Shown here one piece after another: positions 25,020 through 64,000 of a stretch of DNA of 64,000 bases. The notes beneath the pieces are model-generated. The model had not been told where the DNA came from, searched no databases, and saw nothing but the letters and a program-made list of their open reading frames with translations. Origin of the DNA: Marsupella aquatica (lineage: Eukaryota > Plantae > Marchantiophyta); the NCBI GenBank assembly GCA_973895155.1, contig OZ316899.1, positions 8,187,241-8,251,240 of the forward strand. The letters run 5' to 3'. Position numbers and translations under genes: made by a program. Within the stretch, counting starts at the first letter, position 1; the number at the start of each line of letters is the position of its first letter.

Positions 25020-25175
25020 TCTTGGCAAGCCTCACCAACATCTGGATTGGACCAGACACTTAATCTCGGAGAGCCTTGCCGACATCTGGACTGGACCAGA
25101 CACTTAATCTCAGAGAGCCTTGCCGACATCTGGACTGGACCGGACACTTAATCTCGGCGAACCTTGCCAACATGA
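25020..25175. repeat. Tandem repeat, 44-bp unit, about 3.5 copies (intronic)
   Basis: GACATCTGGACTGGACCAGACACTTAATCTCGGAGAGCCTTGCC repeated. Confidence 0.85.
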
Positions 25176-32859: not shown

Positions 32860-33103
32860 TGTGGTGCGTCCCATGGCTCCCTAAACCCAAGAAACCCCTC
32901 TGCACAAGCCGATTCCCATAGGTTTTGCTCTTGGCTAGGCCAATTTTGCGGCTATGAGACATGGGACGCTACTAACTTCCTTCTACTACTATTTAACATT
33001 TTACTCACATATACTGGACAGATCCTTCATCGGGTCATGAGATACGTAGCCGGCCTATTCTAGGCCTTCCCTTGTCCTCCTCTCTCGGTTTCCCTTTAGA
33101 TAT

Positions 33104-34493
33104 TGTGGTATGGGTGTCCCTGCAATTTTTTCTGGAAACTTGTTTATTTTTAGCATATCACAAGATTTACTTACACTTTAGACACCTTCCGGCCAACATT
33201 TACTTGTTCTGGACACTTATAGAAATATTTGACATCTCCGGCTTTCCTGACGATTCCTAGTGTACTTTGCCCGACGCTGTGACCAGCGCCCGTTTCTTTT
33301 ACTCAAGACGCTGCGGAAGCGTCCAACCTCCTCATGACGCTTTTGGCAGTGCCCGACCGCCACCAAGACTCTATGAGGATTTCGACCGACGCTGTGGAAA
33401 GCGTCAGCTTCAACACACGACGCTGTGAGCAGCGTCCACCCTAGTATTGACGCTGTGAGCAGTGTGAGCAGCGTCCGTTGGTTTTACTTAAGACGCTTCT
33501 AGCAGCGTCCAGATTCTCCCGACGCTTCTAGCAGCGTCCGCTCAACACTTAGTTTTTGAAGTAGATTACTAGTAAAGTAGTATTCTACCACCCTTGTTGA
33601 AGTACTTATGCTGTGCTTCTCCCTTGTTTAGTTTTAAGCTTGGAAAGGCACGACTGTTCTTACCTCCTCCATTTTAGGATTCCAGCACTTATAAGACAGA
33701 GTAGAATGCTCATTTGAAGTAGAGAGAAATAGAGTTAATACTGTATTCAGAATTGAGTCTTCTGAATAGTTTTCTCCTCCTTCCATTATAACAAGGCATG
33801 CTGTGAGTGTTTTGTATGGAAGTAAAGCTATATTGATTGAAGTTAAGATTGAATTTAAGAGATTCCTGTGGTGATTGAATTCAGTTGCAGATTTCTGAAA
33901 CTCGTATTGAATTCACTGCTAGGCTTGCTTGCAGAGTCGGGATTCGCTAGCCAATTCAAGAATAGTTAATGATAAATGAGAAGTAAATTCTGATTCTCAG
34001 AGTAGTTAGTACTGTTGCTTTGATTCTGGAATATGGTTTAGAGTTTGACTGAATTGCGTATCGCTGATGTCAAACCATGTTGACGGCATTTTAAATCATA
34101 TCATTCATTTGCAATCAGAAAGCTTCTGCTTCATCAGATTGAGAATTCCATTATCATTAACCTTTGTGTTTTGAAGAGTGAGATGGATGAATTATGAGAT
34201 AGATTTCATGTCTATACTGAGCCCAAATCCTTTCTGAAGGAGTGGCAGTAGCAGTTTGTAGTCTCTAAATCCTTACTCATTTCTTCTCTAATTCATAAAT
34301 CAGAAGTTCAGTTACTTTGTTGTTTGTTTATTCGATTTTTTTATTGAGAAGTGAAGTCAACATAGAGCTCAAGACTCTAAATCACTCGGAGTGATAAAAG
34401 TTATACAATTCATTCTGAAATCTGTTCTTAAAGGGATCGAAACCCTGGTTTTAGGTGAGGAGAGTCACTTTTGATACTTAGCACTATACGACA
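33104..34493 (+). repeat. 5' LTR of the Athila-like element
   Basis: TGTGGTATGG..CTATACGACA, followed by the PBS. Confidence 0.95.
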
Positions 34494-35711
34494 TCTTTTT
34501 GGCGCCGCTGCCGGGGAACGAATTTAAGATTGAATTGACGTACAGGCAGTGTATGCCAGAAGGAGCTAGACGGGAGAGGAATTCACGTTCTACTATAATT
34601 GTGAAGATGCGTCATCACTCCAGTTAAAAAGATGAAGAGCTTCCATTTCGAGGTGATGCCGTACTCTATCCAAAGCGCCCCGGAAGCTCTCTTAAGAGTA
34701 TTGGAAAAATTTGTGGTGCCAAACTTAAGAGAAGAAACCGCCCTCCCACCAGAAAAGGCCTCACAGAGAGGAGCTGTTGCTCGTCAAGTTGCTTTGGAGA
34801 TAGTCGAAGACACCAAAGACACTTTGAGTGACAAGTGAAGTTATTCTAACGTTGCTCGGGACGTATGATTTGTAAAATTGTCCAACCATCCTGGTTCGTG
34901 TGACCGATGCCACCTATCCGATCTTTGGGAACATTAAGAATTAGGAATTTGAGGAATCGTTATGTTAATTCTTGGGTTCTGAGCCTGAGAGGGAGGAATG
35001 GCATACATTGGTTAACTATCACCTGGTGGGAAGATGAAAGTTTGCATTTAGTAATATTAAGGCTGAATGGTAGGATCACACAGGAGTGATATTTAGTCAT
35101 TTCCATTCGGGAGTTAGCGGAAAGAATCATGCACCAGGAATTGCGTAGAAGATTAGGAAGGAGTTAGACGTCTGATTAGTAGGATGGCCTAGTGTAGCGT
35201 ACCATGTGGTAAAGAAATTTCAGGGTGAAGGAAGTCGGAGATTATGGGGAACGCCCGGTTCCAGTAATCGCCACCGTAAAGGAGATAAGGAAGGACGCCG
35301 CGAAGAGCGTCCAATGCGATTCGTCCCAGAAGATTCCGCAAGTCAGAACGCTTCGAGTAGCGTCCGATCCCAGTGGACGCTGTGAGCAGCGTCCGGTGGA
35401 ATCTGTGACGAACCAACGTGCGCGACGCTTCTGGTGTGCCTTTCCGCGTCTCAACCTGAAGGACGCACCAGAGAAAACGAGGTTTTAGAATCTCGGCTGG
35501 TCACTGAAGGGAAGTATTAGCTACGGGATAGCAAGGGGGAGGAATCATGCAAGGGATGTTGAACGACGCTACGGGAAGTCACTTTGAGGAAGCAGGTTCA
35601 TATCTCCCGGAGTGGGGTGATAACGTCGCACCTAAATGGTGACTCCTTGCATAAAGACTCCTGAGGAGCGGGTCTGGTGTCTCAAAATCACCCGTGCTTG
35701 GAGAATGAGGG

Positions 35712-38700
35712 ATGTCTGAGGGAGATCCACCGAATAAAAGAAAACCTACCAAGACCTCCAGTAATTCGGATGCTGCAAAATTAGTAGTGACCCCTCGCAC
35801 ATTGTTACCCGAATTCCAGTCACCAGGAGCACCTGCACCGGGTAGTGTGTGGAAACAAGTGGGATCTATTCAAGAGGCAAGTGGCTCTTTGGAAAGGCCC
35901 ACGTCGACCCGACCCCTGTTTGTAAATCTTCGTTCAGGTCCAAAACTTATTGGTTCTCAAAAGACCAAGCTCCGCCAGCAGACAGTACGTTCGGTGAACC
36001 AAATTGACTCTGGTGTGGATAGTACCACTGAGAGGGCCTTATCTCATACCGAAGGAAGAAATTTGGGTTTGCCCGAGAATACAGTTGCAGAATCGCTGGC
36101 CCAGGATAATTCTGTCGATCTTTCACAATTGGATAATCCAGAACCACTGAGTGAAGCCGGTGGTTCGTCTTCTAGTGAGACAAGCAGCAGTTCAGGCTTG
36201 GGCAGCCCAAACCCATTTGCTACCCGATCAGCTCTTCCTTTCGTTACCCTCCTAGCTCCAACCACGATGGCTCGAAATAATGTGAGGTACGACCGGTTCT
36301 TCGGTACTTCCAAGGAGGATGCAGAGGTGTATTTGAAAGAATTTGAAGCTGCAGCTGCATCCAATGGACAGAGTCAAGACGCTGAAAAAGCCAATCTGTT
36401 TGGTGGTCTAATGAAAAAGGGTGCTCAGAAATGGTATGACCGTTTTCCGGACAAGCAGGATTGGGGGAAATTGAAGGCTGCTTTCTTGGCCAAATATAAA
36501 GAAGAAGGAGCAGCTGCGCGTGCCTTTGCCCGAATCTCACATCTGCACATGAAGAAACATGGGTCTGTGAGGAAATATGCCGACAAATTATTGGATTTGG
36601 TAGATCAATATAATCCAGCTACCTCGAAATCTACTATCAAGGACTGGTTTATTAACGGTTTACCCTCCAGGATTGCTCGTTACGTGAGACGAGAAGGTGG
36701 CACCACTTTGGAAGAAGTACAAGAGGCAGCCCAGAAGTACGTAGACTCGGAGATTTCAGAGAGAAAACGAGTTAAGAAGGACCTGAAGAAAGACAAAAGA
36801 AAGAAGAAGAAAACGTCCAGGTCTAAATCTGACTCGGAGACGGAATCAAGTGAAAGTAGCACTAGTGAGGAGGACGAGAGTACAAATTCGAGCACTAGTG
36901 ATAGTTCAAGCTCAAGTTCCGACTCAGAATCCGTTGCTCCTAAAAAGAAGAAATCCTCTGTAAAAGGGAATAATAAAGTTCCCAACCAGAAGAAGATGGA
37001 TCGCATGATGGAAGAACTCTCTGGCCAATTGTCCAAGTTGAATGTCAATATCGCCGCGGTAAAACCAGTACGAAGGTTGCCTGCTCCCATGAGAATGAAC
37101 GTATGGTGCACCCGATGCAGTCAGCAGGGCCATTACCCGAACGAGTGCCCCACATTACGAACCCCGGTGAATTATGTAGATGGTCAAGAAGAGGCTGAGG
37201 AGTATGAGTACGATCCCACGTATACCGTCCAAACAGCACCCCCTGGACAGTATTTCCCACCACCTCCTGCTTCCAGACCGACTTGGGGACCACCTAAGCC
37301 CACTTTCAATAAACCAACGTCAAGACCACCCATGGGACCCCCGGGAGGATACCCACCACGAGGAATGCCGCGTCAAAAAGGGGCTTGTTGGAATTGTGGC
37401 CAACCTGATCATTATTCACCCCAGTGCCCTTATCCCAAACAGGAGGTGGGGTATACACCTGTCTGTGGGAACTGTGGAAAAGAAGGACACTTACCGGTGG
37501 AATGCCCGAATCCGGCTAAGCCTAGGCTGATGGTTCGATTTGCTCAAGAGCCAGTTAAAGAAGCAAGTCGACCTGAAGCCAAGATTCGGATGATTTATTC
37601 TGAAGAGATGGAGCAATGCAGCTTCATTCAACATATGGATGTAAATCGGGTGGAATTAAAGCCAGATTCACTTTTTCATCAACCAGTATCCGGGGTGGTG
37701 CCTGATGTCTTGGTAAGTCATTTAGTGAAACCTGAAGTAGTTGGTATGCCGAATGATCGAGTTCAGAATCGGGATAAAGTTCTGACTAATATTTACGCAA
37801 CTACTCGTTCGAAGAAAAAGGAGACCAAGAAGCACGAGCATCAGAAGGTCGCGAAAGCTCCCAAGGATGAAGGGCGCAAGCCATGTAAGGAAGGCCTCGA
37901 CAAAGAAGACGACCCTGCTTATGACCGATATGACCCAAAATACTTCTTGCCCGACATCTCTTTGGAAGTGAAAGACCATCTGGAAGAGCTAGTTAAGGAG
38001 CAAGTGCAATCTCCTAACCCACCAGTAGTAGTCAAAGCTAAAGAGCCACTGAAAAATCCAGGTTATGATATTGTTGAAGATGTCAAGAATCATCCTGCAC
38101 ATATCACCATTGGGGAATTATTACAGGACAATCCGGTTTATAGGCGACAGCTGAGGAGCCTCCTTGCAGGAAAACGGAGGAAGAAGAAGTTACCTTCTGT
38201 GGATGTGCTACGAACAGAGTGGGAGGACAAAGGACCGATGGAAATTGAGGTTCAAATCCAGGGGTGTGTCATTCGGAGAGTTCCTGTGGATGGAGGAGCC
38301 AGCGTTAATCTGATTACACAGTCAGCAGCATTTAATTTGGGTTTCACTAAGTTTGAGCCCACTCCCAAGATTTTGCGCATGGCGGATCAGTCTCGTGTGG
38401 TACCCATAGGGAAGCTGACCAAAGTAGAAACTTTGATTGCTGGTGTCCCTTTTCTGTTGGATTATGTGGTTATTAATCCGGAAATACCATCCAGCTTTCC
38501 TGTTTTGTTAGGCCGACCATGGTTGTATAAGGCTCAAGTTCAGGTTAATTGGCAATCTCAAGAGCTTTCATTTGGGAAGCCTAAGGTGACTGTTAGTTGG
38601 GTTCCGGAACCACATTTTGGAGAAACACAAACAGATGATGGGTACACCTCGGATTTTTCGACCTCTTCGCTAGTCCTGCAGCCATTGGAATTTGAACTGG

Positions 38701-38765
38701 AGGAAGTTCGTTACTTGGAAGTTTATCTGTCTGATGCTCCCATAAAACCAACTAGGCCCTCCTGA
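35712..38765 (+). CDS. gag: Gag plus aspartic protease (three CCHC zinc knuckles)
   Basis: 1,017-aa open ORF. Capsid-like RYDRFFG..DWFINGL; knuckles CTRCSQQGHYPNEC, CWNCGQPDHYSPQC and CGNCGKEGHLPVEC; protease VPVDGGASVNL..LLGRPW. Confidence 0.95.
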   Translation: MSEGDPPNKRKPTKTSSNSDAAKLVVTPRTLLPEFQSPGAPAPGSVWKQVGSIQEASGSLERPTSTRPLFVNLRSGPKLIGSQKTKLRQQTVRSVNQIDSGVDSTTERALSHTEGRNLGLPENTVAESLAQDNSVDLSQLDNPEPLSEAGGSSSSETSSSSGLGSPNPFATRSALPFVTLLAPTTMARNNVRYDRFFGTSKEDAEVYLKEFEAAAASNGQSQDAEKANLFGGLMKKGAQKWYDRFPDKQDWGKLKAAFLAKYKEEGAAARAFARISHLHMKKHGSVRKYADKLLDLVDQYNPATSKSTIKDWFINGLPSRIARYVRREGGTTLEEVQEAAQKYVDSEISERKRVKKDLKKDKRKKKKTSRSKSDSETESSESSTSEEDESTNSSTSDSSSSSSDSESVAPKKKKSSVKGNNKVPNQKKMDRMMEELSGQLSKLNVNIAAVKPVRRLPAPMRMNVWCTRCSQQGHYPNECPTLRTPVNYVDGQEEAEEYEYDPTYTVQTAPPGQYFPPPPASRPTWGPPKPTFNKPTSRPPMGPPGGYPPRGMPRQKGACWNCGQPDHYSPQCPYPKQEVGYTPVCGNCGKEGHLPVECPNPAKPRLMVRFAQEPVKEASRPEAKIRMIYSEEMEQCSFIQHMDVNRVELKPDSLFHQPVSGVVPDVLVSHLVKPEVVGMPNDRVQNRDKVLTNIYATTRSKKKETKKHEHQKVAKAPKDEGRKPCKEGLDKEDDPAYDRYDPKYFLPDISLEVKDHLEELVKEQVQSPNPPVVVKAKEPLKNPGYDIVEDVKNHPAHITIGELLQDNPVYRRQLRSLLAGKRRKKKLPSVDVLRTEWEDKGPMEIEVQIQGCVIRRVPVDGGASVNLITQSAAFNLGFTKFEPTPKILRMADQSRVVPIGKLTKVETLIAGVPFLLDYVVINPEIPSSFPVLLGRPWLYKAQVQVNWQSQELSFGKPKVTVSWVPEPHFGETQTDDGYTSDFSTSSLVLQPLEFELEEVRYLEVYLSDAPIKPTRPS

Positions 38766-41738
38766 CAATTAACTTCATCATCGGAAGTGGGCCCAGCAGC
38801 AGACGAACCTCCTAATACTGAGGCTAATAGGGATTTACACCATGATATGGGAGTGTCAGCTACCCTTGAGCCATTTGCACCAGAAGTATCCAAACTTGGA
38901 CTTCAGCCGGCAAACCTCACGGATGGAATTGTGGATCCAAAAGCTTGTCAGAAAATCGAAATTGAGCCAGGCAAGTTTTTGAATATTGGTAAGCATATCG
39001 AAGGAGAGCTACGGGAACAGTATATCAGTTTATTAACCCAGTATAAAGATGTCTTTGCCTGGAGTCATTCTGATTTAAAAGGTATCCATCCACATTTGGG
39101 CGAACATCGTATTGACCTTATGGAAGGAGCAGTACCTGTCCGACAGAGACAGTACCGTTTGAATCCCAAATATTCCATCCTGGTTAAAGACGAGTTGGAC
39201 AAGCTCACGACTGCTGGATTTATCTACCCGGTCTTGAGTAGTGAATGGGTCTCACCAATTGTCATTGTCCCCAAAAAGCCGGGACCCGATGGTAAAACGA
39301 AAATTCGCGTTTGTCAAGACTTCCGGAAGTTGAATGCTGCCACTCGGAAAGATCATTATCCTTTGCCATTTATTGATCTGGTACTTGATTCAGTGGCCTT
39401 GCATGAGTTATACAGTTTTTTAGATGGGTACTCTGGTTATAACCAGGTGTCCATTCGGAAGGAGGATCGCGACAAGACTACGTTCACCACCGACTGGGGT
39501 ACATATGCATTTACCATGATGCCTTTTGGGCTGTGTAATGCCCCGGGTACTTTTCAGCGCATTATGATGATTATTTTTCAAGAATATTTGCGGCATTTCA
39601 TGGAGATTTTTATTGACGACTTTTGTGTTTACGGCTCAGCGGCTGAACACCTCGTCCATTTGGAGAAGACATTTCAGAAGTGTAGAGAGGCTCAGTTGTG
39701 TCTTCATCTAGAAAAGTGCTTTATTGGTATGAAGGAGGGAATTTTGTTAGGCCATGTTATTTCACAACGCGGCATTGAGGTTGATACAGAGAAGGTTAGA
39801 GTAATTATGGAGTTGCAACCACCGACCGATTTAAAGCAGCTTCGTGCTTTTCTGGGACATGTGGGGTATTATCGTCGGTTCATTTATAAACATGCTAATA
39901 TTGCCTTACCCTTAACCCAACTGTTAAAAAGTGATGTGGAATATACATGGAATGAGGAGCGGCAGCAAGCATTCCAGTTGCTCAAGGATCGGTTAATCTC
40001 TGCACCTATTTTGTCACCCCCAGATTGGACTAAGAAGTTTCATGTCTTCATTGACTCTTCTGCGTTCTGCATTGGAGCTAATCTCAGTCAGAAGGATGTG
40101 GAAAACCGTGACCATCCAATTTACTATGCCAGCCGCCAAATGAGTGCAGCCGAGAAAAACTACTCCGTCACTGAACGGGAAGCTTTGGCCATCGTCTTTG
40201 CGTGTAAGAAATTTCGTCACTATTTGTTGGGGTATCAGGTTACTTTTCACACTGATCATAATTCCTTAAAATATTTGGTTAACCAAGTGGATCTCTCAGG
40301 ACGAGTAGCCCGCTGGGTTTTACTACTCCAAGAATTTGATTATGAAGTTCATGTCCGACCTGGCAAACATCATGAGAATGCAGACTTCCTATCTCGGTTA
40401 CCTGGTCCGGAGAATCAGCATAATCTCTCCGATGAATTTCCTGACGAGCATTTGTGGCACATTGAAGGGGAGTCTTCTCGATATTTTAATATTGTGCACA
40501 TGCTGCTTCATGGAACGTTCCCTGAAGGCTTTAATGCGGAAGAACGAGCTGTCTTTGCTCATAAGGTGGGTCCCTATACCATTATTCGGGGCACTTTGTT
40601 TAAACAAGGTCCTGATCAACAATTGCGACGTTGTCTAGAGGATAGGGAACTTCCCCAAGTAATTGAAGCTTTACATTCAGGAGAAACCGGTGGGCATTAT
40701 GCTGTGAATACCACAGTTAAGAAAATTTTGGATGCTGGATACTGGTGGCCTACTATGCATCGAGATACTTACAATTTTATTAAGACCTGTGATCCCTGTC
40801 AAAGGATCGGGAAGCCCACTGCTAGTTCCAAATGGCCTCTTACGCCTATCCTTCCGTTGGCACCATTTGAGAAATGGGGGATTGATTTTATTGGCCCAAT
40901 TTCTCCAGCAGCTCGGAAAAGCCGAAGCAAATATATTATTCTGGCCACTGATTATGCCACCAAATGGGTAGAGGCGAAAGCTACTCGCAAGAATGATGCT
41001 ATAACCGCAGCTGCATTTCTCTTTGAGCACATTATCACCCGGTTTGGTTGTCCTTTGGAGTTGGTAAGCGATAGGGGTTTGCATTTTCTTAACTCAACTA
41101 TTGAGTTAATCACTGACCTTTATCTTATCAAGCATCGCAAAACTACTCCTTACAACCCCCGAGCTAATGGCTTAACCGAGAGAGCTAATGGCATTATGGG
41201 CAAGATTCTGAATAAAATGGTAGAATCTCACAAGACAGATTGGGATGTGAAGCTCCATTCTGCATTATGGGCTTACCGCACCGCTGAGAAGATTACAACT
41301 CTTCACACCCCCTTCTATCTGACCTATGGCCTGAATAGTATTATTCCAATAGAATTTTCGTTACCAACGGAACGTATCTTGGTACCACACCGACTCTCTC
41401 CTTCAGATAGTCTCTCACATCGGTTTTCCAATATTGTTAAATTAGAAGAAGTTAGACTTTTAGCATTAGACCATACAGTCACCATTCAGAACCAGCGTAA
41501 ACTTGCTTATGATAAGAAGCTGCGCGTAGTGCAGTTAGATGTTGGTGATTTAGCATTAGTCTTTGATTCTCGTTATATGCTATTTCCTGGGAAACTTCAT
41601 ACTCATTGGATTGGTCCTTACCGAGTTACACACATCTGGGATAATGGTTCAGTTTCATTGACTACCTTAGATGGTCACCCACTTAACACTAGAATCAATG
41701 GGTTTAGGATTAAACGGTACTATGAGTCTTCCATTTAG
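38766..41738 (+). CDS. pol: Pol (RT-RNase H-integrase), in frame with gag behind one TGA
   Basis: RVCQDFRKLN, LDGYSGYNQ, MPFGLCNAP and FIDDF (RT); RNase H NYSVTERE..TDH; integrase H..H..CDPC, WGIDFIGP, SDRG, NGLTER. No disruptions. Confidence 0.95.
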   Translation, partial: QLTSSSEVGPAADEPPNTEANRDLHHDMGVSATLEPFAPEVSKLGLQPANLTDGIVDPKACQKIEIEPGKFLNIGKHIEGELREQYISLLTQYKDVFAWSHSDLKGIHPHLGEHRIDLMEGAVPVRQRQYRLNPKYSILVKDELDKLTTAGFIYPVLSSEWVSPIVIVPKKPGPDGKTKIRVCQDFRKLNAATRKDHYPLPFIDLVLDSVALHELYSFLDGYSGYNQVSIRKEDRDKTTFTTDWGTYAFTMMPFGLCNAPGTFQRIMMIIFQEYLRHFMEIFIDDFCVYGSAAEHLVHLEKTFQKCREAQLCLHLEKCFIGMKEGILLGHVISQRGIEVDTEKVRVIMELQPPTDLKQLRAFLGHVGYYRRFIYKHANIALPLTQLLKSDVEYTWNEERQQAFQLLKDRLISAPILSPPDWTKKFHVFIDSSAFCIGANLSQKDVENRDHPIYYASRQMSAAEKNYSVTEREALAIVFACKKFRHYLLGYQVTFHTDHNSLKYLVNQVDLSGRVARWVLLLQEFDYEVHVRPGKHHENADFLSRLPGPENQHNLSDEFPDEHLWHIEGESSRYFNIVHMLLHGTFPEGFNAEERAVFAHKVGPYTIIRGTLFKQGPDQQLRRCLEDRELPQVIEALHSGETGGHYAVNTTVKKILDAGYWWPTMHRDTYNFIKTCDPCQRIGKPTASSKWPLTPILPLAPFEKWGIDFIGPISPAARKSRSKYIILATDYATKWVEAKATRKNDAITAAAFLFEHIITRFGCPLELVSDRGLHFLNSTIELITDLYLIKHRKTTPYNPRANGLTERANGIMGKILNKMVESHKTDWDVKLHSALWAYRTAEKITTLHTPFYLTYGLNSIIPIEFSLPTERILVPHRLSPSDSLSHRFSNIVKLEEVRLLALDHTVTIQNQRKLAYDKKLRVVQLDVGDLALVFDSRYMLFPGKLHTHWIGPYRVTHIWDNGSVSLTTLDGHPLNTRINGFRIKRYYESSI

Positions 41739-42121
41739 AATTCCACCTGGGACAGGTTGCAATTTAAGTGGAGGGCGGTAGTTATACTTAGTTAGAATTA
41801 GTGACCCTCCCTAGTAAGTATTCGGCATATTTTTTTAATTTTTTTTAGTTACTTTCAGTTTTTACATTGGACGCTGTGAAAAGCGTCCATTGTAACTCGA
41901 CGCTGGGGAAGCGTCCACTTAGTTTACAAAGGACGTTGTGCAGAGGTCCGCTTTTGTATTAGTTCAGTTGCATGAGACGCTGTGAGCCGATGACTAGGCA
42001 TCTTGTACAATGGCGGATTGCGACAGCTCAACGGGACGCTGAGGAGTAAGCAGTCGCGCTTCGCCCTAGTTCACTATGGAACACGATTCTCACTGAGCTT
42101 ACGGAGCTAACAAGTCACGCG

Positions 42122-44695
42122 ATGGCGGAGACTGAGCTGACGACGCGACCAATACTCGCAGACATTCCATCGAATGCAGTGCATAGGCGGCAGTTGAAGA
42201 CGGCTCTGGCAAAAATGGGCTTGAAGAAGCTGCTTCAACTTCCTTGGAAGATTTGCGAATTCAGCCTTATCGATCAAGGTGTCTGGGACGCTGAAGAAAG
42301 GATTGGTGTGCGCTCGCGTCCCAGTGTTTGGACTGAAGCGCTCATAGCGAAGGTCTATTCGACGCCGATGGAGGGCGAGGATTTACAGAGGGTTGATTGT
42401 GAGCCTCGGGTTTATGTAGAATCCTTCTTCGCTCCAGGATCTTTCAAGAGGCGGAATGGATGGCTAGCGGCGAACTGCTTAGATAATTCTCTGCAGCGTC
42501 TATTTCGATTTCTGGCACCAATTTTCTACCCAGAAAGCCAGACGCGCATCACTCTTTCGTTCGCTGCAACGGTGATCTGTTCATTAGAACAGACGCAGTC
42601 TATCAATTGGACGAAGGTTTTGCACCGAGTAATTCATACTCAGGTCAAAAATTTTCGTAGCAGGCTGAAAACGGGGAAAATAAGGTGTACCTACTTGGCC
42701 CCTTATTTAGCTCACATTTACCATAAGTATGACTGTCTGCTTGTCTTGGAAAAAGATTTTTATCGCAACAATCAGAGAGCATCTACCGGTGAAGCAAATT
42801 ATATGCCTGAAGTACGAGAAGTCCGAGCCAATTCCACAGTGGTAGAGCTATGTGCAATACTCGACTGTGAGGAACCTGAACTGGTGGGTGAAGTTCGGAA
42901 ATTGAAAGAGACAAGAGCATCAGCTGAAGGGAGTGACGATCCGATTCTTCACCAACCAAGAGAGGCTCAAGTTGCCGAAGATGTTCCTTCAGCAATGCCA
43001 ACAGGGTTGGAGCATTCTATGTCACCTCGACTCTCGTGTTCACCTTGTGCTGCCGAGCCTATTTATGATGTTGATCAGGATAATTCTGCTTCTCGGATGA
43101 ATGTTGAAGATGAGGTGAGGGTGGATGAAGAAGGTTTTTCAGGGGAACCTCTTCAACATTCTACTGCTGAGGACGAGTATGATGGATTTACTTCTACCCC
43201 TGTTTTGGTTCCCATAGAGGCAAATAGTGATGCTTTGCAGGCTTTACAGGAGTATGATTCGTCCGACTCTCTTAGTTCTAGCCCAAATATAGGTGAAATC
43301 CCTCTGGTCCAGGAGTCAGAAATATTAAGCTCAGAAATTGTGAAGCTGGTTAAAGTTGATTCGGAGGATGCAATTGTGGATATAGACGAAGTAGGTGAAC
43401 CAGTGACTTCTCCCCAATCTGTCGCAAGATACCCTGCCTGGTCTACACCTGGTTCACTCATATCGATTCCTTTGGATATAACTAAGGAATTAGATGAGGC
43501 AATAGCCGCGATAGGAGCTCCTTCATTTCCGCCTGTAAAATGGGTTTCTCCTGAAGATGAGTTGATTGAAGGAGGCTCTGCTGGTTTTCCGAGTCGCAAT
43601 CAGGTATCTGGTAATATGGGTATATCTGTACCCATATTGGTACCCGAGACACCCGCTTCGACAACCAGCTCAGCACCAGTTTCATTGGCTACAAACGAGG
43701 ATAAAAACATTCGGGAGGAGTTTTCAGTGACGTATACTCGAAAATCTTGGAAACGGTTGCGCCATGCTATCAGTCGACAGATCTTTCCTGAAGCATCTTC
43801 CCAGGATTTTGAACAGGGAGAAGCACCTATCGGAACAGACGAGCTACCCCTTCCTGTACTTTTGACAGATCGAACTAACCAGGAAGTCTCTTTACCTAGC
43901 GATAATTTTAAAGAAGAACTTCCTGTTTTAGTACCAATGCATTCCATTGCAGATCAACCAGCTACGGTTGCAAGAGAAGAATTTGAACCACTGGAGCCCG
44001 AACCTTCTGCTCCTTCGTCTCCTGTTACATTGCCAATTCGACCAGTTAAGGAGTCAGTGATTCCTTCCGCTATGCCAGATGTAATTTTCCGTTGGATAGG
44101 AGCACCAAGTGATGGAGAAGAAGACGAAGACCCTCGCATTATCAGAGTACCTCCTCGACTTCGGCATACAGTGGATTTGCCACCCCGAAATCCTATCCCT
44201 AATTTGGCTTCAATTCACAGGTGGGAGAAGAAACATTTTCGAGTAGCTTTTCGACATCTGGAGATGGAGAGCATTTTGCAGCAGCAGCAGATTTTGCCAA
44301 TGACATCCCATCCGAGGATTCGTAGTTTGATTCGCACATATGAACCTGGGAAGGCGGTTCCTCCCATTGATAAGGACAGACGACATAAGTTTTCGGAGTT
44401 CGAAATTTGGTGTTGGGTGTATATGCTTCGACGAGCTCAAGCTCCATTTCCGCCCCTTGTGCCGGAAATTCCATGGCCCTATCCATACTTTGTTTGGGTT
44501 TGTCCTGGTGGGTTTGCTATTCCAATTAAATATGAGAAGAAGCTTGTTAAGCTAAGGGAGCAGTTGATTACAAAACAATGTATGCTACCGGCTTCCCAAG
44601 GGTTCAAGTCGCTTAGGTGTTTAGCGTTCCTACCTATTATTCCTTCTTATCCGGATGTGATTATTCAAGGTGTTTTATCTAGGACACAGATTTGA
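42122..44695 (+). CDS. Accessory ORF (857 aa) in the 'env-like' position downstream of pol
   Basis: Intact ATG-initiated ORF. The N-terminal domain GLKKLLQLPW..WTEALIAKVY..RNGWLAANC..INW..YLAPYLAHIY is followed by an acidic, Pro-rich tail. Confidence 0.85.
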   Translation: MAETELTTRPILADIPSNAVHRRQLKTALAKMGLKKLLQLPWKICEFSLIDQGVWDAEERIGVRSRPSVWTEALIAKVYSTPMEGEDLQRVDCEPRVYVESFFAPGSFKRRNGWLAANCLDNSLQRLFRFLAPIFYPESQTRITLSFAATVICSLEQTQSINWTKVLHRVIHTQVKNFRSRLKTGKIRCTYLAPYLAHIYHKYDCLLVLEKDFYRNNQRASTGEANYMPEVREVRANSTVVELCAILDCEEPELVGEVRKLKETRASAEGSDDPILHQPREAQVAEDVPSAMPTGLEHSMSPRLSCSPCAAEPIYDVDQDNSASRMNVEDEVRVDEEGFSGEPLQHSTAEDEYDGFTSTPVLVPIEANSDALQALQEYDSSDSLSSSPNIGEIPLVQESEILSSEIVKLVKVDSEDAIVDIDEVGEPVTSPQSVARYPAWSTPGSLISIPLDITKELDEAIAAIGAPSFPPVKWVSPEDELIEGGSAGFPSRNQVSGNMGISVPILVPETPASTTSSAPVSLATNEDKNIREEFSVTYTRKSWKRLRHAISRQIFPEASSQDFEQGEAPIGTDELPLPVLLTDRTNQEVSLPSDNFKEELPVLVPMHSIADQPATVAREEFEPLEPEPSAPSSPVTLPIRPVKESVIPSAMPDVIFRWIGAPSDGEEDEDPRIIRVPPRLRHTVDLPPRNPIPNLASIHRWEKKHFRVAFRHLEMESILQQQQILPMTSHPRIRSLIRTYEPGKAVPPIDKDRRHKFSEFEIWCWVYMLRRAQAPFPPLVPEIPWPYPYFVWVCPGGFAIPIKYEKKLVKLREQLITKQCMLPASQGFKSLRCLAFLPIIPSYPDVIIQGVLSRTQI

Positions 44696-44707
44696 AGGAC
44701 ACCATTT

Positions 44708-45184: not shown

Positions 45185-45261
45185 TGAAGAACATGTCACT
45201 CGCTTCTGATTCAATTCGGTCATGTCTTGTGGGGACACGGCGAAATTTAAGTGGAGGGCTA

Positions 45262-54000: not shown

Positions 54001-57000
54001 CGTAGAGTGTCCCCTTGCCGGACTATTTGGTTTTAAATTTGTGGTCGGCTTTCCTTTCGGCCTCGGCTCTGGCTTGTTTTTGTGTATCTCATCCATTCCT
54101 ACCTCTCGAGGGTCAGGTCGCTATGCTCTTTCGGCTTCTAATAGGGCCTCAATTTGTTCTGCCCTTGTAATCGGCTTGTATGCCAATTCCTTGGTATTTA
54201 ATTTATTGCCGATGATAGACGGTGTTGTGGATCCTGCCGGCTTTGCCACAACGCATGAGGAAAATCCACTGGCTTGGGTGCAGCTCCCCACTTAGCCGTT
54301 TCATCCAACTGGTCCACTTTTTGTGCTTCCTCTGGAATTGAAGCTAAAAAGGTGGACTCTATGGCAAAGCAGTCCTCGGTTTTGTCTTCACATTCCTCCA
54401 AGTCACTCTCCATAGGTTCTTGCCATAGTCCGTTGGGGGATACTTCTGGTCCAAAGATACTTTCTTTGGTCAGGTTAGTGAGGCATTCTAGTCAATGTAC
54501 CTCATCTGCTGACTCCAATCCACTGTCATACCCATCTACCTCCCTGATGCTTCTCCTACGATCATCCTTGGTGTCCCAAGATACCGTGATAGCGGGGGTT
54601 CCAAAAGTGAACTCCTTCTTCCCCCAATCTTCTATTACCTTGGCAAGATACAGCCATGGCCTGCCAATCAATAGCCAAAATGACATAGGGTTTACCGGCT
54701 TCATTACTACATAGTTAATGCTAAAAACGATCCCTCCTATCTCAGTCTTGATGCCAGTTAACACTCCCGTGGGAATGACCTGATACCCATTGGCCATGTT
54801 CAACACTCTTCCAGTCATCTCCGGCGTTAGTCCCCGTCCTTTTGCTGTTGAATCAATCATAATACATACCCCTGATCCTCCATCGATGGGTACCCTTAGT
54901 AATATTTCTCCTTGAATCATTAATGGTAGTGCTGGGGCTCCTTGATCTTCTTCTATCATTAGCACGTCGGATCTGGTTGCTACCTTGGGTAATCTCGGCT
55001 TGCCGAGAATGGCCTTCCTTAACTGCTTCCGAAAGTACGGGCTATTTTTCAATAGTTGACCTACTGTTGCCGAGACTCTAGATTCTAGTACATCTTTAGC
55101 CAAGTCATAGGGGACTATCGACTTCTCTTCTGCCGGTGTCTTTATATTGGCTTCGGCCTGTTTTTTCACGCTAGTTTCCACAGCCCTTGGATCCTCCAAA
55201 GCAAACAACGCTTTTGCTCGTTTCACATCCTTGGCTATGGCTTCGATATTCTCCAGGGTTTCCAATTCTCGCAGTTGTTCCTTAACATTAGCCGTAATAG
55301 AGGGGTAAAACAACTTAGGGTGGTCTCGATTGAAGTCGCTCTCCTGTGAAGGATTGGGCTCACTAGTGGGCTCATGGCTTACCTGTGTTGCCGGCACCCT
55401 TCCTTCTCCTTCTGTTGATGTTGACGAAGAGTCGATATTTTCTTCTTTAACCTTCCCCTTATTTTTGGCCAGCCCATCCCCCCTTTCCTTCCTTCTGGTG
55501 GATCGAGTAGAGCCCGGTAGCAATCATGATCCAAATCCTCTTTTGAAAATGTTGATAGGGCCTCGGCCTCATCATCAGATGGTCCAAACTCTGCCTCGAC
55601 ATCCACTTGCCATCCGAGTTTGATGTGGTTGATTTGAACTCCTCCTGGGGTAGTACCCGGAGGCAAAACCTTGACCGGCAAGAGCTTATGATTTCCGGCA
55701 AGTCCTGCCAACCAAGTAGGACATTGTCCTAGCATGTGACCCTCTTGTCGGCATCCCATACATAGCTGAGCTGGTTGTCCATCACCTTGTTTGCGTGCAT
55801 TCGGGCATCTCTAGCAAAATGGCCAGGTTGACCACAATTATAGCATGCCGCAAATCTTTGCACATTCGGCCTAGGAGGTACTGACGGATTCTGAATAATC
55901 CGAGGATACATTTCTCCCGGATTGTTTCTTAATCCTGACCAGAGAGATGCAGGTCGGTTGGATAGGTCTCGTGCTCTTGTCTCACTAATGCCGAAAACAC
56001 TATCAGCGGCATCCCCTAAAAAGTACTCTACTTCTCCCTGACATGGTCTGACCTCAGCCACATGCCGAACATGACTAGTATTAAGTTTAGGACATGCGTC
56101 TTTATGGTGTCCGATTTTATAACATAAGGCACACCATACAGAGCTATCCTTGAGTACTACCTTCTTCTTTGGCTTTACCTCTGCTATTATAGCTTTAAGT
56201 TGCTCAGTAAGAGCTACGATGTTATCTGGCGTTTTAGCTTCTAGCTTGACTTTCAACTTCCCCCTCCTTCTACCCTTCTTTTTCCGAGATTTTTCTTCTT
56301 TAGAACTAGAAGATGACTCACTCTTGCTACTTCCACTATCCGAGCTTGAGTTATCACTTCTTGACTTCTTAGAATGTTTCTTTTTCTTATCTTTTTTCTT
56401 ATGGGGTGATCCTTTCTCTGATGAGGAACTCTCAGACTTAAGCTGTTTCTTCCGGCTTGTGATATCTGCATTAATGTATAATTGAATATCCTTAATTGCC
56501 TCGACTAAAGTCTCTGGGTTCTCCTTCCTAATTGCAAAACTCATCTTCTATGGCAAAGCATTCACTAACCATTGAAGTTGCATACCTTCAGATGCATTGG
56601 TCTTTGTACGTCTTACCAGCTTTTGGAAACGTTGCAAGAACTTTCTGAAGGATTTGTTCTCCTTGAACCAAAGTCATCCCAACTTCAGCACTGCTAGCTC
56701 TGAGGTTCCAATGGGTCAAAAATCCTTTACAAATAGTGATTTGAAGGTATGCCAGATGGCTTGATCTTCCACATCCAATGCTCTGTACCAGGGCCTAGCC
56801 TCACCCTTGAACAGGCCGGGAAGAATCTGCATCTTGATGGCTGATTCTCCATTTGCTGCAGCGGTTCTGTGATGCCTAGCCAGGAATCACTAGGCCGGTT
56901 TACATGGTAAAAGCAGGAATGTACCCTGGAAACACCTTAGTATAGTAACAAGATAAGGAAAATATAAACAATTAAGGGTGACTATGGAACCCGGGCCGAG

Positions 57001-58903
57001 GCCGGAAGTAAGGACGCCAGGGGAGAGAACACGATTAGGGTTAGGGCGCGCTAAGCATCGGTGGCTAGGGTAACCAACGGGAGGGAAGACCAGAGGAGGA
57101 GAGGGATAAGGACCACTCGCGAGGAATGGTGGCTCATTTGCAAGCACGAACTGGGCAGACGACTATTGGAGGCCAAATACTGTCAGCTGCTTAGGCAAGC
57201 ACTCTGGGTGGGAACAGATACCAACAATCGAGTCAAAGAGGGTATGAGCAACGTCAATCAAGCGGCACATTTTTGGGGATGCCTGTTCGAACGGGCAATT
57301 GAGTACATTGGGACTTACGAGGACGAAGAATCGGAGAGAGCAGCTTGAGAACGGCAGGAGCTCGCTCGACTGTGGGAGCTGCATAAGTCTGCCTTCTTAG
57401 GAGGAGAACTCATCAAGGCCGAGTTCTTGTGGACTCCTACTGCCAATCAGCTCGATGACCTTCTGTTTTGCGAAGATAGAATTGTCGGCATTCGGGAAGC
57501 CATCAATTGCTGCAACGACGTGCACTAGGAGTTGAAGGGTAGCACGGAGGGGTGGACAAAGGCAACTGTGCTAGGAGAAACATCCACGGCAGCCGAGATG
57601 AAGAGGAAAGGAAACAACAACGAAGAGGCCACCCCGGAAAAAAGGCCGAGGTCGAGACAACCAGTAATGAAGCCGAGGTACAAGATCCTCCACTAGAACA
57701 TGCCGGGGAGGCCGAAGCCGAGGGTGGACCCAATCAGGCCGATGAAGAGTTGACTCGGTCCGGGGCAGGTAATCTGTCAGAGGACGAACCAACGGCAGTG
57801 GCTGCGGAGGAAGCGTTGGGGGCGTCCATTGAGGACCAGCCACCGGGGTGGTGACGGTGTAAGGGAGCTGTCCCTTTTAGGGAGGGCGGACAAGGAGGTA
57901 GGAGGCGTGAGTGGGCAGGGCAGGCGCTGATCTCCAAGTTTAGACTAAGGATCAGGACCAGGAGACGGCCCTGACACTTAGATTAGTGGGATTGCGGATC
58001 CACAAGTAAGGGCGACACTTGTGCTCCTGCCTCGCTGTACATAGGTAGATTACAGTTAGGTAGATTACAGATAAGTAGATTAGGCTTACGCTGCAAGAAA
58101 TCAGGCGGATCCACAACCAGGATAAGTACCTGGGCTGCGGGGAGTTCAAGGCCTCTTCTTTAGCAAGTTTTTAGTTGCACCAGCAGGGTTGGGATCAAGT
58201 AGTAAGAGAAGCTCTCGGTTAGTTATACAGTGACCCTTGTGTATATTCATGTTTCCTCATGCCTAAGAACTTAATAGAGTTGGCCTCGCGGCTTAGTTTG
58301 TAGAGCTTATGTATGAGATGTACTGTTTGTATGGCAAGTGCATGGTATAACTCAATCAGAAGGAGTCATTTTGCTATTTGTGTGTCGCATTAACTTGTGT
58401 GAAGAGTGCCCACATCAATGAAGGGAAGTAGCAAGGGAGTGAGAGTTGGATGTGTCGAGCTGAGAGAGGTCTTAGCGGCTTAACCAAGCCAATTGGGGAT
58501 CATTCCGGCGGCGGAATCCAAACATACCTAATGGAAGACCAGGAGAGGAATACAAGGGAGGGCCTAGAATAGGCCGGCTAAGTATCTCATGACCCGATGA
58601 AGGATCTGTCCAGTATATGTGTGTAAAATGTTAATAGTAGTAGTAGAGGTGATTAGCAGCATCCCATGCCACTAAGCCACGGAAACGGCCTCGTCAAGGA
58701 TGAAACCTGCGGGAATCGGCTTGTGCGGGGGGGTTTCTTGGGTTTGGGGAGCCATGGGACGCACCACAGGTTCCTTCAAAGTCATCCAACCATTCATCCG
58801 GATCCTCATCTCCTCTTCCATGAAATGCCTTGTAATGAATGCGCGACCGTTGGCTCAGTCTGGTCCTAGGCCTCTCTTCTGGCCGTGCCTCTGGTTCCCC
58901 CAT
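51025..58903 (-). pseudogene. gag-PR-RT-RNase H-INT of the long-LTR element, decayed and interrupted in gag by copy C
   Basis: YKAFHGRGDEDPDEWLDDFEGT|AAANGE (gag, across the insertion), CALCYKIGHHKDAC, VPIDGGSGV (PR), RVCQDYRKLN and FIDDF (RT), WGIDFMGP and SDRGTHF (INT). Confidence 0.92.
56868..58768 (+). mobile_element. Internally deleted solo LTR (copy C, 1.9 kb) of the long-LTR family
   Basis: TGTGATGCCTAGCC..GGACGCACCACA with TSD GGTTC (56863-56867, 58769-58773). Lacks the equivalent of about 26000-28720 of copy A. Confidence 0.9.
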
Positions 58904-59164
58904 GTCGATTGGGGACTCACTTCTCCCTACCGACTCCTCTTCTGGTATGTCTTCTTCGATGCCACTTTCAGTTACGGAGTGACTAGCTCTTTATGCCCCT
59001 CTCAGTCGCTGTGTATCCTGCCTCCTGACGAGCTGCTGCAGACGAGCTCTCTCCCGTTGAGTCGCTCTTTCCTCCCTCAGCATAGTTTCAGTCATTACCT
59101 ACGTTTCCTCCCTAACTTCATATCTCACGGCTTAAGAAATGCCCCCTCCATCTAGCGCCAAAAA

Positions 59165-62100
59165 TGTGGTGCGTCCCATGGCTCCCTAAACCCAAAAAAC
59201 CCCTTTGCACAAGCCGATTCCCGTAGGTTTCGCTCTTGGCAAGGCCAATTTCGCGGCTATGCGGCATGGGACGCTGCTAACTTCCTTCTACTACTATTTA
59301 ACATTTTACTCACATATACTGGACAGATCCTTCATCGGGTCATGAGATACGTAGCTGGCCTATTCTAGTCCTTCCCTTGTCCTCATCTCTCGGTTTCCCT
59401 TTAGGTATGTTTGGATTCCGCCATCGGAATGATCCCCAACTGGCTTGGGTAAGCCGCTAAGATCTCTCTCAGCTCGACACATCCAACTCTTACTACCTTG
59501 CTACCCTTCTTGGTTGATGTGGGCAATCTTCAAACAAGTTAATGCGACACACGAATAGCAAAATGACTCCTTCTGACTGAGTTATACCATGCACTTGCCA
59601 TACAAATAGTACTTCTCATATACAAGTTTTGCGAACTAAGCCGTGATGCCAACTCTATTCATCTCTTAGGTATGAGGAAACATGAATATACACAAGGGTC
59701 ACAGTATAACTAACCGAGAGCTTCTTTAACTACTTGATCCCAGCCCTGCTGGTGCACTAAAAACTTGCTAAGGAAGAAGGCCCTCAACTCCCCGCTGCCC
59801 AGGTACTTATCCTGGTAGTGGATCCGCCTAATTCCTTGCAATGTAAGCCTAATCTACCCTACTGTAATCTACCTAACTGTAATCTACCTATGTACAGCGA
59901 GGCAGGAGCACAAGTGTTGCTCTTACCAGTGGATCCGCAATCCCACTAAGCTAAGTGTCAGGGTTGCCTCTTGGTCCTGATCCTAATTCTAAACTTGGAG
60001 ATCTGAGCCCGCCCTGCCCACTCACGCCTCCTCCCTCCACGTCCGCCCTCCTTAAAAGGAGCGGCCCTCCACCACCGTCATGGCAACGATGTCTGGTCCT
60101 CAATGGACGCCCCCAACACTTCCTCCGCAGCCACTACCATAGGTCCGTCCTCTGATAGATTACCTGCTCCGGACCGAGTCAACTCTCCATCGGCCTGATT
60201 GGGTCCACCCTCGGCTTTGGTCTCAGCATCGGCCACGGCCTCCCCGACATGTTCATCACCGAGTATCCTAGCCTCGGCTTTGCCATACCCGCCTTCTAGG
60301 GCAGTTGGATCCTTTGCCGTGACCCTACCTGAGGTTGGTGCTGGTTTACCTCCTTGGTCACGACGGCTTGAGGAGCCGTATTACTCCCTGACCCAAAAGG
60401 TTTCCGCTTCTTCTTCTTCTTTGGTTTGGCAACTGGCCCCTTCCCCTTGCCACTTACCTCCGACACCGGTGCGAGTGTCTCGGCTTGTCCTTCGACCAGT
60501 ACTACTCCTGGTAACTTGGTTGCCCCAATTGGAGTTGGACCTGAGGAAGCCAAGCACTTAAATACTGCGGCTTGTTTCTTCAACCGCTCCATTTGGTTGT
60601 CGGCCCGCTGCTGTAAGTTCTCCATCTTCCGCGTGCTTTCCTCCAACTCCTCCTGCAATTCATCCAGGTCCTTGCGCGCCTCCTCCCGCTCCTTCTGGGC
60701 TTCCTCCAATTCCTCCTTTAAGGTAGCCCTCTCCTCCTGGGTTGCTCTTAGCTCCTTGTTGAGCTCCGTAACAACCTCAGACTCCATTTTATTCATCTTG
60801 GCATAAGTCTGGTCGAGCTGGTTGTCTTTCTTGCGGAGGTCGGCCTTGAAGCTGGCCGTCATGGATGCGAGCTCCTGCCACAGCACGATAATCGCCTAAT
60901 AGGATTTCCCTAACTCGGCCTCCTTCTGCTCAAGGGCTCCGCGGATATCCTCGAGTTCCCCCTTCAGTGCCCTTTCCCTTCTCTGAGTTTCCGCCATGGC
61001 CCGATTGTTGGCTGCTATGTGGGCCTCCTCTGCGTCTCTCAGCTCTTGCTTCCACTTCTCCTTTTCCTTGATCAAATCGGCCAGCTCACCTTGGGTCCAA
61101 GTTAGTTTATCCTTGATAATTTGATTATCAGACTGTGCGGTATCCAATTGCCCCTGCATGATGTTGAGCTCATGCCGCTTAATCCGCAGCTCATCTTGGG
61201 CTTTCTTGGCTGCCTTCAAGTCTTCTACCTTGGCTTCCCTTGCCCTAAGCCGATGGATGACCTCGTCCTTCTTGCTTCTCTCCAAAGCCACCGCTTCTTC
61301 TAATCGGCGCTTCTCCAACATTTCCCTCTGGAAAAAAGGTCCCTGCTCCAACTCCTCCCCAAAGATGCCCAGTGCAAGTTCCCCACACATCTCCCCGTAC
61401 TCCATGGCTCATTCTTTAGCATAGCCGGAGTGAGTAGAAGTCATCGGCATCATCCACCGTGGCCTTTGTTCCCAAGCCGCCTTGCGAATTTCTTCTATCG
61501 TGGCTGGCGGGCTGCTTCGTTTTTCTGCAAGCCGCCTGATGTCCTCTGGCCATTCTCCTCCTGGTAAATCCTTCTCCCTAGCCAGGGCTGCCTCTTCTTC
61601 CCCCCTGAGTCGTTCCTGAAACTCCTGTGCCGTCTGTTTTATGTCGTCGAAGCTCGGGGGAGCCACATCTGGTGGGGGAGACTCGGGGCTGCTCTGTTGG
61701 GTTGGGTCCCCTTGAACTACTCTTGGAAGAGTGGGGATGAACCTGCCACAGGTCCTTATTCCTGGAACATGATGGTCCGACCCGTAGCCGGAGTCATCAT
61801 TGTCGTAGCCTTCTACCGCCTCCTCCTCGGCTTGGACTACCGGCTCCCCCCGCTATTGTCCTGGTCTTGCCGTGAACACGGCCTCACAGATCACGGGTCC
61901 TGGTTCCTCCGGCTTCCACGTTGATCTCATCTTCTCCCTGTCGCGACTAGGAGCTTTGGGCTGCTTTTCCTCGGCTTTGGGATTTGAAGCTCCTACATAC
62001 ATTTGGACTCCCGGCTCGTGTTCCGGTCTCCTTCTCTCCTTGACCCCGGTAAAGGGGTTTTCCCTAGTAAGTTGGCTAAGGCCGACTTTGGGAGCAGTAT

Positions 62101-63845
62101 TCTGTACCGGTCCCGTTGCCGTTGTCGTTCTCCTTTCCTTCTCCAGCAATTTCAGTAGATTCTGCATGCCTGGTTGCTGCATCGGCAAGTCCTCCTTCCT
62201 CGGCCTAAACACCTTCTCGATTGTAGGACTGTCAGGCTGGGTTGGTTTCTCTGTTGCCGGCCTCGGTTCCGAAACCTCCTCTGGTGCTCTTGCCTGCAAG
62301 GGCAATACCGGGGCAAATATCTGACTTTGGGCATACCGGCACAACAGCGGCATATGATAACCAAGCTGGGACACGCTTCCCATGCCGATCACCAGCTGTT
62401 CCTCCTTCAAGATCTTCTTTAGTTGGGTGAGGAGGTACCCGTTGTAGTCTCGGCTTGGGTTTGGCCTCTCCGCCAGATAGACCTGTGCCTTGCCGATCTC
62501 TACCCTCGGCAACTTACAATGCATGGTTACCCGCAATAAATCGATCATTTCTCCTATGTGCGGGTTGCTGCAGGTGTTTTGGAAGAAGCCATTCTTTGTT
62601 GATGGCCCTGGAAACAACCGGAACTCCCTGTCTGGCAAGGTCTTCCTGGTATCTACTTTGGTCTTATTGCCCATCGGCAAGCCAAATACTTTGGCAATCA
62701 CCCGGGGAGTGAGATAGAAATCCTTCCCATACACCCTTGTGGAATTGGTCTTGGGCTCCCATGATCCCACGAATTCTAGTAAGTCTGAATCCGGCACCTC
62801 TTGCTTTAGCCATGGTAACTTAACGAAGGCTTCCAAGCCGGATCCGGCCATGAAACCTTGGTATTTCTGAGTCTGCATAGCCGTAAAGCATGCATCCTCC
62901 TCCCGTGCAAAGTGTAATTGCACCTCCTCAGGGAGGGTCGTGGCCCAGCCTTTCTAGGTGTCATCTCTTGTTGGAATGGCATTGATGGGGTCAACCTCCT
63001 CCTCTTCGGCTTCCGCCTGCCTCCTGCTTCCCTGCTCTACTGGTTTCCTGGGTGCCGCCGACCTCGTTCTTTTTGCAGGGGTGGCTTCTTTGTTGTTGTT
63101 CCCTTTCCTCTTCATAGCGGTTACCGTGGATGTTTCTCCTAACACGGTTGCCTTTGTCCACCCCTCCGTGCTACCCTTCAACTGCCAGTGCATGTCGTTG
63201 CAGCGGTTGATGGCCTCCCGGATGCCGACTATTCTATTCTCACAAAACAGAAGATTGTCAGGTTTGTCGGCAGTAGGCGTCCACAAGAATTCAGCCGTAA
63301 TGAGTTCTCCTCCTAAGAAAGTAAACTTCTACAGCTCCCACAGCCGAGCGAGTTCCTGTCATTCTCAAGCCGCTCTCTCCGATTCTTTGTCCTCGTAGGT
63401 CCCAATGTACTCAGTTGCCCATTCTAACAGGCATCCCCCAAAATGAGTAGCTTGATTGACGTTGCTCATACCCTTCTTGAGTTTATTGTCGGTATCTGCT
63501 TCCACCCCGAGTGCTTGCCTGAGCAGCGGACAGTAGTTGGCCTCCCGTAGTTGTCCGCTTGGCTCGTGTTTGCAAATGAGCCGCCATTCCTTGCGCTCGG
63601 TCCTTACCCCCCCTTGGCTGGTCTTCCTTCCCGTTGGTTACCCACAGCCGCCGGTACTTAGCACACCCTAACCCTAATCGTGTTCCCTCCCCCGACGTCC
63701 TTACTTTTGGCCTCGGCTCGGGTTCCATAGTCACCCTTAATTGTTTATATTTCCCTATTTTTGTTACTATACTAAGGTGTTTCCTAGGGTACACTCCTGA
63801 TTTTACTATTTAAACTGGCCTAATGATTCCTGGCTAGGCATCACA
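59165..63845 (-). repeat. 5' LTR (copy D, 4.68 kb) of the long-LTR element, containing the decayed accessory ORF (~60079-63728)
   Basis: The minus strand reads TGTGATGCC..GCACCACA, then TTTT, then the PBS. ORFs 62954..63286, 61853..62923, 61409..61666, 60896..61405 and 60296..60886 are pieces of one protein. Confidence 0.93.
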
Positions 63846-64000
63846 CAGCTCAAGAGGTTGAGCTTCTGCAACTACGACCCAAGGTTGCAACCGCCGATGA
63901 GTTGTTAGCAAATGCGCATGCCCTTACCGCCTTAGCCGAACAGGCCAAAGCCGGGAAGGAGGACAAGATTGCACACCTCCAAACCCAGGTTGACAGTTTG

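Follow-up and report, generated by a model that had tools for sequence, protein, structure and literature searches.

We analysed a window of 64,000 nucleotides from the liverwort Marsupella aquatica (contig OZ316899.1, positions 8,187,241 to 8,251,240), in which a Ty3/gypsy retrotransposon (32860-63845, minus strand) carries a large gene within its long terminal repeats (LTRs), a gene that has almost certainly been kept by selection. The encoded protein has a predicted VANC21-like fold and may act in trans on LTR motifs of its own family to keep the LTRs transcribable, a reading to which we assign a probability of roughly 0.5. A 3.4-kb gene in this position runs counter to the usual assumption that the LTRs of plants do not code for protein, and it turns solo LTRs into potential genes.

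A conserved reading frame inside the LTR

Self-comparison of the window and inspection of the junctions yielded four copies of the LTR. The 5' LTR (copy A, 59165-63845, minus strand) measures 4,681 bp and ends in TG...CA. The 3' LTR (copy B, 4,624 bp in total) is split by a nested gypsy element, here called element N (33104-46651, plus strand), into a main part at 46657-51036 (minus strand) and a severed final 244 bp at 32860-33103 (minus strand), the latter 94.7% identical to 59165-59408. Compared with the split copy B, copy A showed 93.9% identity over 4,454 columns (Kimura two-parameter distance 0.049). The 2 other copies are solo LTRs on the plus strand: copy D (25209-29885), of 4,677 bp, with target-site duplication (TSD) TCATC and ~82% identity to A, and copy C (56868-58768), of 1,901 bp, with TSD GGTTC, which is inserted in gag and internally deleted by ~2.8 kb.

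Alignment of the 4 copies revealed a single sense frame that opens with an ATG at LTR nucleotide (nt) 377 and closes with a stop near nt 3767, spanning ~3.4 kb or ~1,130 codons. This open reading frame (ORF) sits wholly between the LTR termini, the layout known from sag of mouse mammary tumour virus (MMTV). It occupies 60078-63469 (minus strand) in A, with 7 stops and one frameshift, 47329-50660 (minus strand) in B, with 5 stops and several frameshifting deletions, and 25585-28969 (plus strand) in D, the most intact copy, with one stop (26035-26037) and one frameshift (near 27540). An intact ORF was found in none of the 4 window copies. The frameshift of copy A, a single base near 60342, is not shared: at that point B and D remain in frame, as does most of the contig depth in each of the 4 public DNA runs compared (from 2 organisms and 2 studies, one of them possibly the source sample).

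A first-pass annotation of the same DNA had described a sense frame of ~3.6 kb in each LTR, encoding a protein of ~1,200 amino acids and interrupted by mostly copy-specific stops. The frame itself was recovered, while its length had to be revised: an upstream ATG at LTR nt 116-118 shares the frame in D but not in the 3 other copies, and the stretch beginning there is unconstrained in that frame, with ratios of nonsynonymous to synonymous rates (dN/dS) of 0.97-1.85, so that the protein had been made ~70-85 codons too long. Stops were present in at least one copy at 12 positions of the ORF core, 10 of them private to one copy; the 2 shared ones lie at codon 35 (A, B, and C) and codon 858 (A and B). 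At 11 of the 12 positions, the stop represents a C>T or G>A change relative to the codon of another copy.

Differences between A and D amounted to 126, 108, and 269 at codon positions 1, 2, and 3, respectively, over ~1,000 codons. The dN/dS for A-D and B-D was 0.21-0.36, and 0.22-0.36 for A-D alone, varying with kappa; the first-pass annotation had proposed a value below 1 between A and D as a sign of function, and the control frames mostly lay around 1 or above (4 of the 5 at 0.97-1.91), with the fifth, an antisense frame with common third positions, giving 0.29-0.41, as expected. Constraint was strongest in the globular domain (0.16-0.17), followed by the N-terminal part (0.28-0.29), the coiled coil (0.33-0.34), the linker (0.36-0.37), the end of the core (0.46-0.68), and the last 110 codons (0.83-1.0). 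A codon model favored an omega near 0.3 over omega = 1 (twice the log-likelihood difference ~151). Changes seen only in A or only in B numbered 139, 98 of them C>T or G>A, and were consistent with a context-matched neutral null (p = 0.17). Constraint between the lineages, combined with neutral-like private changes in A and B, indicates a gene that was maintained in active lineages and decayed after insertion. LTR-based dating must hence allow for selected codons.

The element around these LTRs, which holds 2 nested insertions, is flanked by the 5-bp TSD CAGCT (32855-32859 and 63846-63850). Its primer binding site (PBS; 59143-59160, minus strand), which we take to be tRNA-Asn-like, lies 4 nt past the 5' LTR, and its polypurine tract (PPT; 51040-51049, minus strand) lies 3 nt ahead of the 3' LTR, within the integrase reading frame. 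As the first-pass annotation had it, the TSD, PBS, and PPT delimit LTRs of ~4.68 kb, and the integrase ORF enters the 3' LTR: the frame crosses the PPT and ends at 51025, 12 nt within copy B, leaving no separate post-pol region. The TG..CA ends it gave hold for A; B begins with TA, one substitution away. The broken gag-protease-reverse transcriptase-RNase H-integrase region (51025-59000, minus strand) was mapped with Pfam and tblastn. Pfam gave the order zf-CCHC, RVT_1, RT_RNaseH, Integrase_H2C2, rve on the minus strand, and the protease region was located by tblastn to element N. This domain order, together with 2 LTRs, a 5-bp TSD, a PBS, and a PPT, fits a Ty3/gypsy LTR retrotransposon. No chromodomain was matched by Pfam after the integrase of the main element, which is a feature of non-chromoviruses. 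Neither did the main element contain an additional (archaeal) RNase H (aRH) between RNase H and integrase, which marks the Tat clade (Neumann 2019 definition), nor, having no internal post-pol region, the sense extra ORF between pol and PPT that marks Athila. The element works in the manner of OTA-type gypsy elements that carry an accessory gene, yet lacks these Tat and Athila features.

The LTR protein, its relatives, and its predicted role

From N- to carboxyl-terminus, the protein comprises an N-terminal part of 150 residues, a bipartite motif resembling a nuclear localization signal (NLS), a globular domain of ~200 residues (62327-62920 in A, minus strand), a proline/acid-rich linker, a coiled coil of ~300 residues, a basic motif, and an acidic tail. 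The globular domain and long coiled coil noted at first pass were thus both recovered, the latter under purifying selection (60556-61445 in A, minus strand; dN/dS 0.34 versus D). Pfam detected weak coiled-coil families alone (ATG16/Filament) on copy D. No env-like transmembrane stretch was found in copy D (highest 19-residue hydropathy 0.94).

A search of 1.84 billion protein representatives returned 22 matches at E <= 0.001, some of them spurious (e.g., P0007, P0017, and P0020). Ten matches were looked up; 3 of them are named proteins of Calypogeia fissa, the others being unnamed or "hypothetical", which suggests a liverwort-like host. A family alignment was built from 3 window copies and 14 of the 22 matches, and none of its 17 members had an hmmscan match to Pfam in the globular domain, including to DUF1985/DUF287, PF10536, PF20167, and PF03078. 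The alignment profile matched 2 further ORFs in the window: the internal post-pol extra ORF of element N (42050-44695, plus strand; 881 amino acids, intact; E 7e-7) and a broken ORF, ORF E (31058-32859, plus strand; E 5e-12), into which the main element is inserted and which resumes after 63846. A profile restricted to the non-window rows likewise recovered copies A, B, and D as well as ORF E and the ORF of element N, the last at iE values down to 1.4e-7. In the Atlas, the domain of element N lies beside PF20167 (0.92; 23 of 30 matches) and PF03078 clusters (range 0.91-0.92), and the globular domain of the LTR ORF beside PF20167/PF03078 families at the level of a lead (0.84). Judged by these profiles, the LTR protein belongs to an ordinary family of plant post-pol accessory ORFs and is homologous to the internal extra ORF of element N. 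What is new is the position of the gene and the fold link; the protein family itself is already known.

The globular domain of D (26074-26763, plus strand) was used for structure prediction, its predicted structure resembles VANC21, and we consider a VANC/PMD-like fold (PMD, plant mobile domain) probable. The LTR protein is no member of the VANC family by sequence or by carrier, but may work similarly, and on the predicted fold we regard an anti-silencing or activating function as an even bet. The protein would enter the nucleus through its NLS-like motifs, oligomerise via the coiled coil, and bind short repeated motifs. A candidate for such a motif is a 15-bp tandem repeat (2.7 copies) in the 3' non-coding portion of LTR A (59850-59890, minus strand), which recurs at 47101-47141 (B) and 58041-58082 (C). 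It falls within the 900 bp behind the ORF stop, the part of the LTR that is best conserved between lineages and that also bears a repeated 10-mer. Two telomere-like hexamers at LTR nt 167-169 (63666-63677, minus strand), presumably telobox-like, occur in all 4 copies, and the rest of the window has none. The stops common to A and B suggest a parent that no longer had a working copy of the gene, the alternative being recurrent C>T change; a null parent fits supply of the protein in trans.

A gene in the LTR with a VANC/PMD-like fold could also have another role, such as tethering the integration complex to chromatin, providing a coiled-coil scaffold for the particle, or limiting the copy number of its own family. 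Such roles would suit an element without a chromodomain and a constrained coiled coil of this length, nuclear import and regulation are listed among the options for extra ORFs in a review (PMC7264820), and MAIN/MAIL1 are described as acting in silencing. However, the only solved structural neighbor, VANC21, binds DNA and counteracts silencing, later work showed PMD-C proteins to act against Polycomb silencing at DNA motifs (bioRxiv 10.1101/2024.09.27.615353), and the stops shared by both LTRs suggest that the parent integrated without an intact protein of its own. We consider these roles improbable.

Should the anti-silencing reading be true, solo-LTR formation, by which hosts normally rid themselves of such elements, would leave the counter-defence in place, and isolated leftover repeats could, given the predicted fold, probably still provide a factor keeping the family active. 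The function of extra ORFs in plant retrotransposons is a long-standing question (PMC7264820, PMC6317226), for which the link to VANC21 yields a concrete, testable hypothesis of motif-specific anti-silencing. If the link holds, it extends the VANC21 fold to non-flowering plants and to retrotransposons. More tentatively still, a bryophyte element may have moved a VANC-like anti-silencing gene into U3, such that every LTR, solo ones included, would combine a promoter, an anti-silencer gene, and its target motifs; VANC, PMD, and Athila-type domains would then form one ancient anti-silencing family of land plants, older than the eudicot VANCs.

The position in U3, already suggested at first pass and here combined with a promoter of its own, is the somewhat likelier placement of the ORF. 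In the ancestor, the gene would have lain between pol and PPT, the place that its homolog in element N still occupies; from there, a shift of plus-strand priming to the PPT at the integrase end would have made it part of U3 in one step. A TATA-like TATAAA at LTR nt 95-97 (63744-63749, minus strand), the sole TATA[AT]A match common to all 4 copies, is the candidate ORF promoter: from nt 97, it would drive a separate mRNA whose end falls in the last 900 bp of the LTR, and this final part would serve as an ordinary LTR with a second promoter producing the genomic RNA. Two promoters are the simplest reading, as with MMTV sag and its U3 promoter P2 (PMC9412291). All 4 copies also have, immediately after the TATA-like site, a stretch similar to the PPT plus TG of the element itself (63725-63743, minus strand; LTR nt 103-121); its score of 27.5 is borderline (~95th percentile of shuffles). 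A PPT-like relic 25-45 nt past the ORF stop is the best or second-best match to the PPT of N in all 4 copies, and is not significant LTR-wide.

Alternatively, the TATA-like site could be the only promoter. The ORF would then lie in a 4.4-kb U5 (or R) and come first among the cistrons of the genomic RNA, differing in position from the 5' extra ORFs of Ogre or Retrosat2/Tekay but otherwise a variant of them. The uniqueness of the conserved TATAAA speaks for this, as do the known extra ORFs upstream of gag (PMC3485330) and the PPT-like stretch at nt 103-121, which implies a complex history of the LTR 5' end. It would, however, require a minus-strand strong-stop DNA of 4.5 kb and polyadenylation near nt 150-350. 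That region is rich in purines (T 0.12-0.20), whereas the T-rich stretch with TGTA motifs comes after the ORF, at LTR nt 3800-4400. Given, in addition, the one-step route into U3 offered by a homolog located 3' of pol, a placement in U5 is unlikely.

VANC21 (PDB 9lnk) was the single match of 48,161 to the predicted domain of D, covering 211 of its 230 residues at 8% identity, with no match to VANC21 by sequence profile. It is very unlikely that this is a chance likeness and that the domain has a plant-transposon fold of its own (PF20167/ATHILA-like), from which function could not be transferred: beyond the coverage and uniqueness of the match, VANC21 is the sole product of a plant transposon accessory gene whose structure has been solved, and structural kinship of VANC and PMD has already been published.

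The solo LTRs D and C are independent insertions, with both ends identical to those of the A/B unit and 5-bp TSDs of their own, which, together with the PBS, PPT, and TSD around A and B, identifies the 4.7-kb unit as the LTR. The earlier suggestion that the ORF is copied twice per element and kept in solo LTRs was borne out by the A/B pair, D, and C. Contigs from all 4 public DNA runs join across C, which is hence an insertion in this copy. In each run, 11,320-36,747 contigs matched 50500-64000, covering 30 of 30 bins; this points to many diverged copies, although contig numbers are no copy count. Copy C lost most of the ORF, kept both ends, and was inserted with a TSD, suggesting short-LTR derivatives or deletion after insertion. 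That the 4.7-kb unit is a separate mobile element, or a short LTR with a passenger insertion, flanking gag-pol by chance can be dismissed, even if its size is at the upper limit of the plant range (LTRs of up to ~5 kb; PMC6317226): it is refuted in the window by the common TSD and the adjacent PBS and PPT, neither A nor B has a TSD to itself, self-comparison showed no terminal repeats within the unit, and D and C share its ends.

Neighbouring elements in the window

Element N is young and nearly intact, with 1,414-bp LTRs that are 99.4% identical. It encodes a gag-protease of 1,018 amino acids, one stop, and a pol of 990 amino acids, and is a good natural source for functional tests of the domain family. 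Past the stop of its extra ORF, a 162-codon frame (44696-45184, plus strand) has a weak aspartyl-protease match (PF13650, E 0.024), and is a possible second protease-like gene 3' of pol. The region of ORF E (30600-32859 and 63846-64000, plus strand) is 25.8% identical to D, has a TATA-like site near 30640, and continues in a coiled-coil-like manner beyond the main element.

Further upstream, remnants of an Ulp1/C48 peptidase (16116-17239, minus strand, and 17335-17890; PF02902, E 6e-9) lie beside a 40/81-bp tandem array, to which repeats at 25038-25173 are related; these are possibly part of a Mutator-like or other element. Other residents are an LTR element at 19316-24469 (plus strand), with 774-bp LTRs (94.8%), a decayed gag-protease-like interior, and no apparent reverse transcriptase, a Ty1/copia element at 7139-14134 (minus strand; 344-bp LTRs, 94.5%), and a second copia remnant at 3848-5723 (minus strand).

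Comparison with known systems

Close parallels are the post-pol extra ORFs of OTA elements (Athila/Tat/Ogre/Retand), such as Athila ORF-1 (PF03078), PMD (PF10536), Transposase_28 (PF04195), and PF20167 (PMC6317226, PMC7264820, PMC11963269), which are likewise accessory ORFs of non-chromoviral gypsy elements and likewise encode a globular plant-transposon domain, a low-complexity linker, and a coiled coil. Those ORFs lie in the internal region, whereas here the gene lies beyond the PPT, inside the LTR, where it is doubled at each insertion and kept in solo LTRs; at the sequence level, the LTR protein has no Pfam match to their families. Published reviews locate the extra ORFs of plant elements internally (PMC7264820, PMC6317226, PMC11963269, PMC3485330, PMC11728184). 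LTRs of up to ~5 kb are known in non-chromoviruses (PMC6317226), and Tat lineages without aRH are described from liverworts (PMC10508981, PMC13468544); a liverwort genome paper gives lineages only (PMC12885004). A literature search, which reached few subscription papers, found no plant family with a large gene inside its LTR. ORF0 of Retrosat2, RIRE3, and RIRE8, and other 5' extra ORFs (PMC3485330), share the long LTRs (>3 kb) and, were the ORF in U5, the position ahead of gag on the RNA. ORF0 is described upstream of gag-pol in Retrosat2-family elements, and its likeness to the LTR ORF is by description only.

VANC21 of Arabidopsis belongs to VANDAL21 (PMC5735166), a Mutator-like DNA transposon, whereas the carrier here is a retrotransposon LTR. 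VANC proteins have been called dicot-specific (PMC13547354), whereas the LTR protein comes from a bryophyte. They contain DUF1985/DUF287 domains, which Pfam did not detect in the LTR domain. The PMD proteins (PF10536; MAIN/MAIL) are tied to the LTR domain only indirectly, by the fold link via VANC21.

MMTV sag encodes ~320 amino acids, much shorter than the LTR protein, and is an unrelated membrane protein of a vertebrate retrovirus. Its U3 location is established, whereas the U3 position and promoter proposed here are inferred. The sag/naf ORF of MMTV, with its own U3 promoter P2 (PMC9412291), is likewise a gene wholly inside an LTR, plausibly served, as here, by an upstream promoter of its own.
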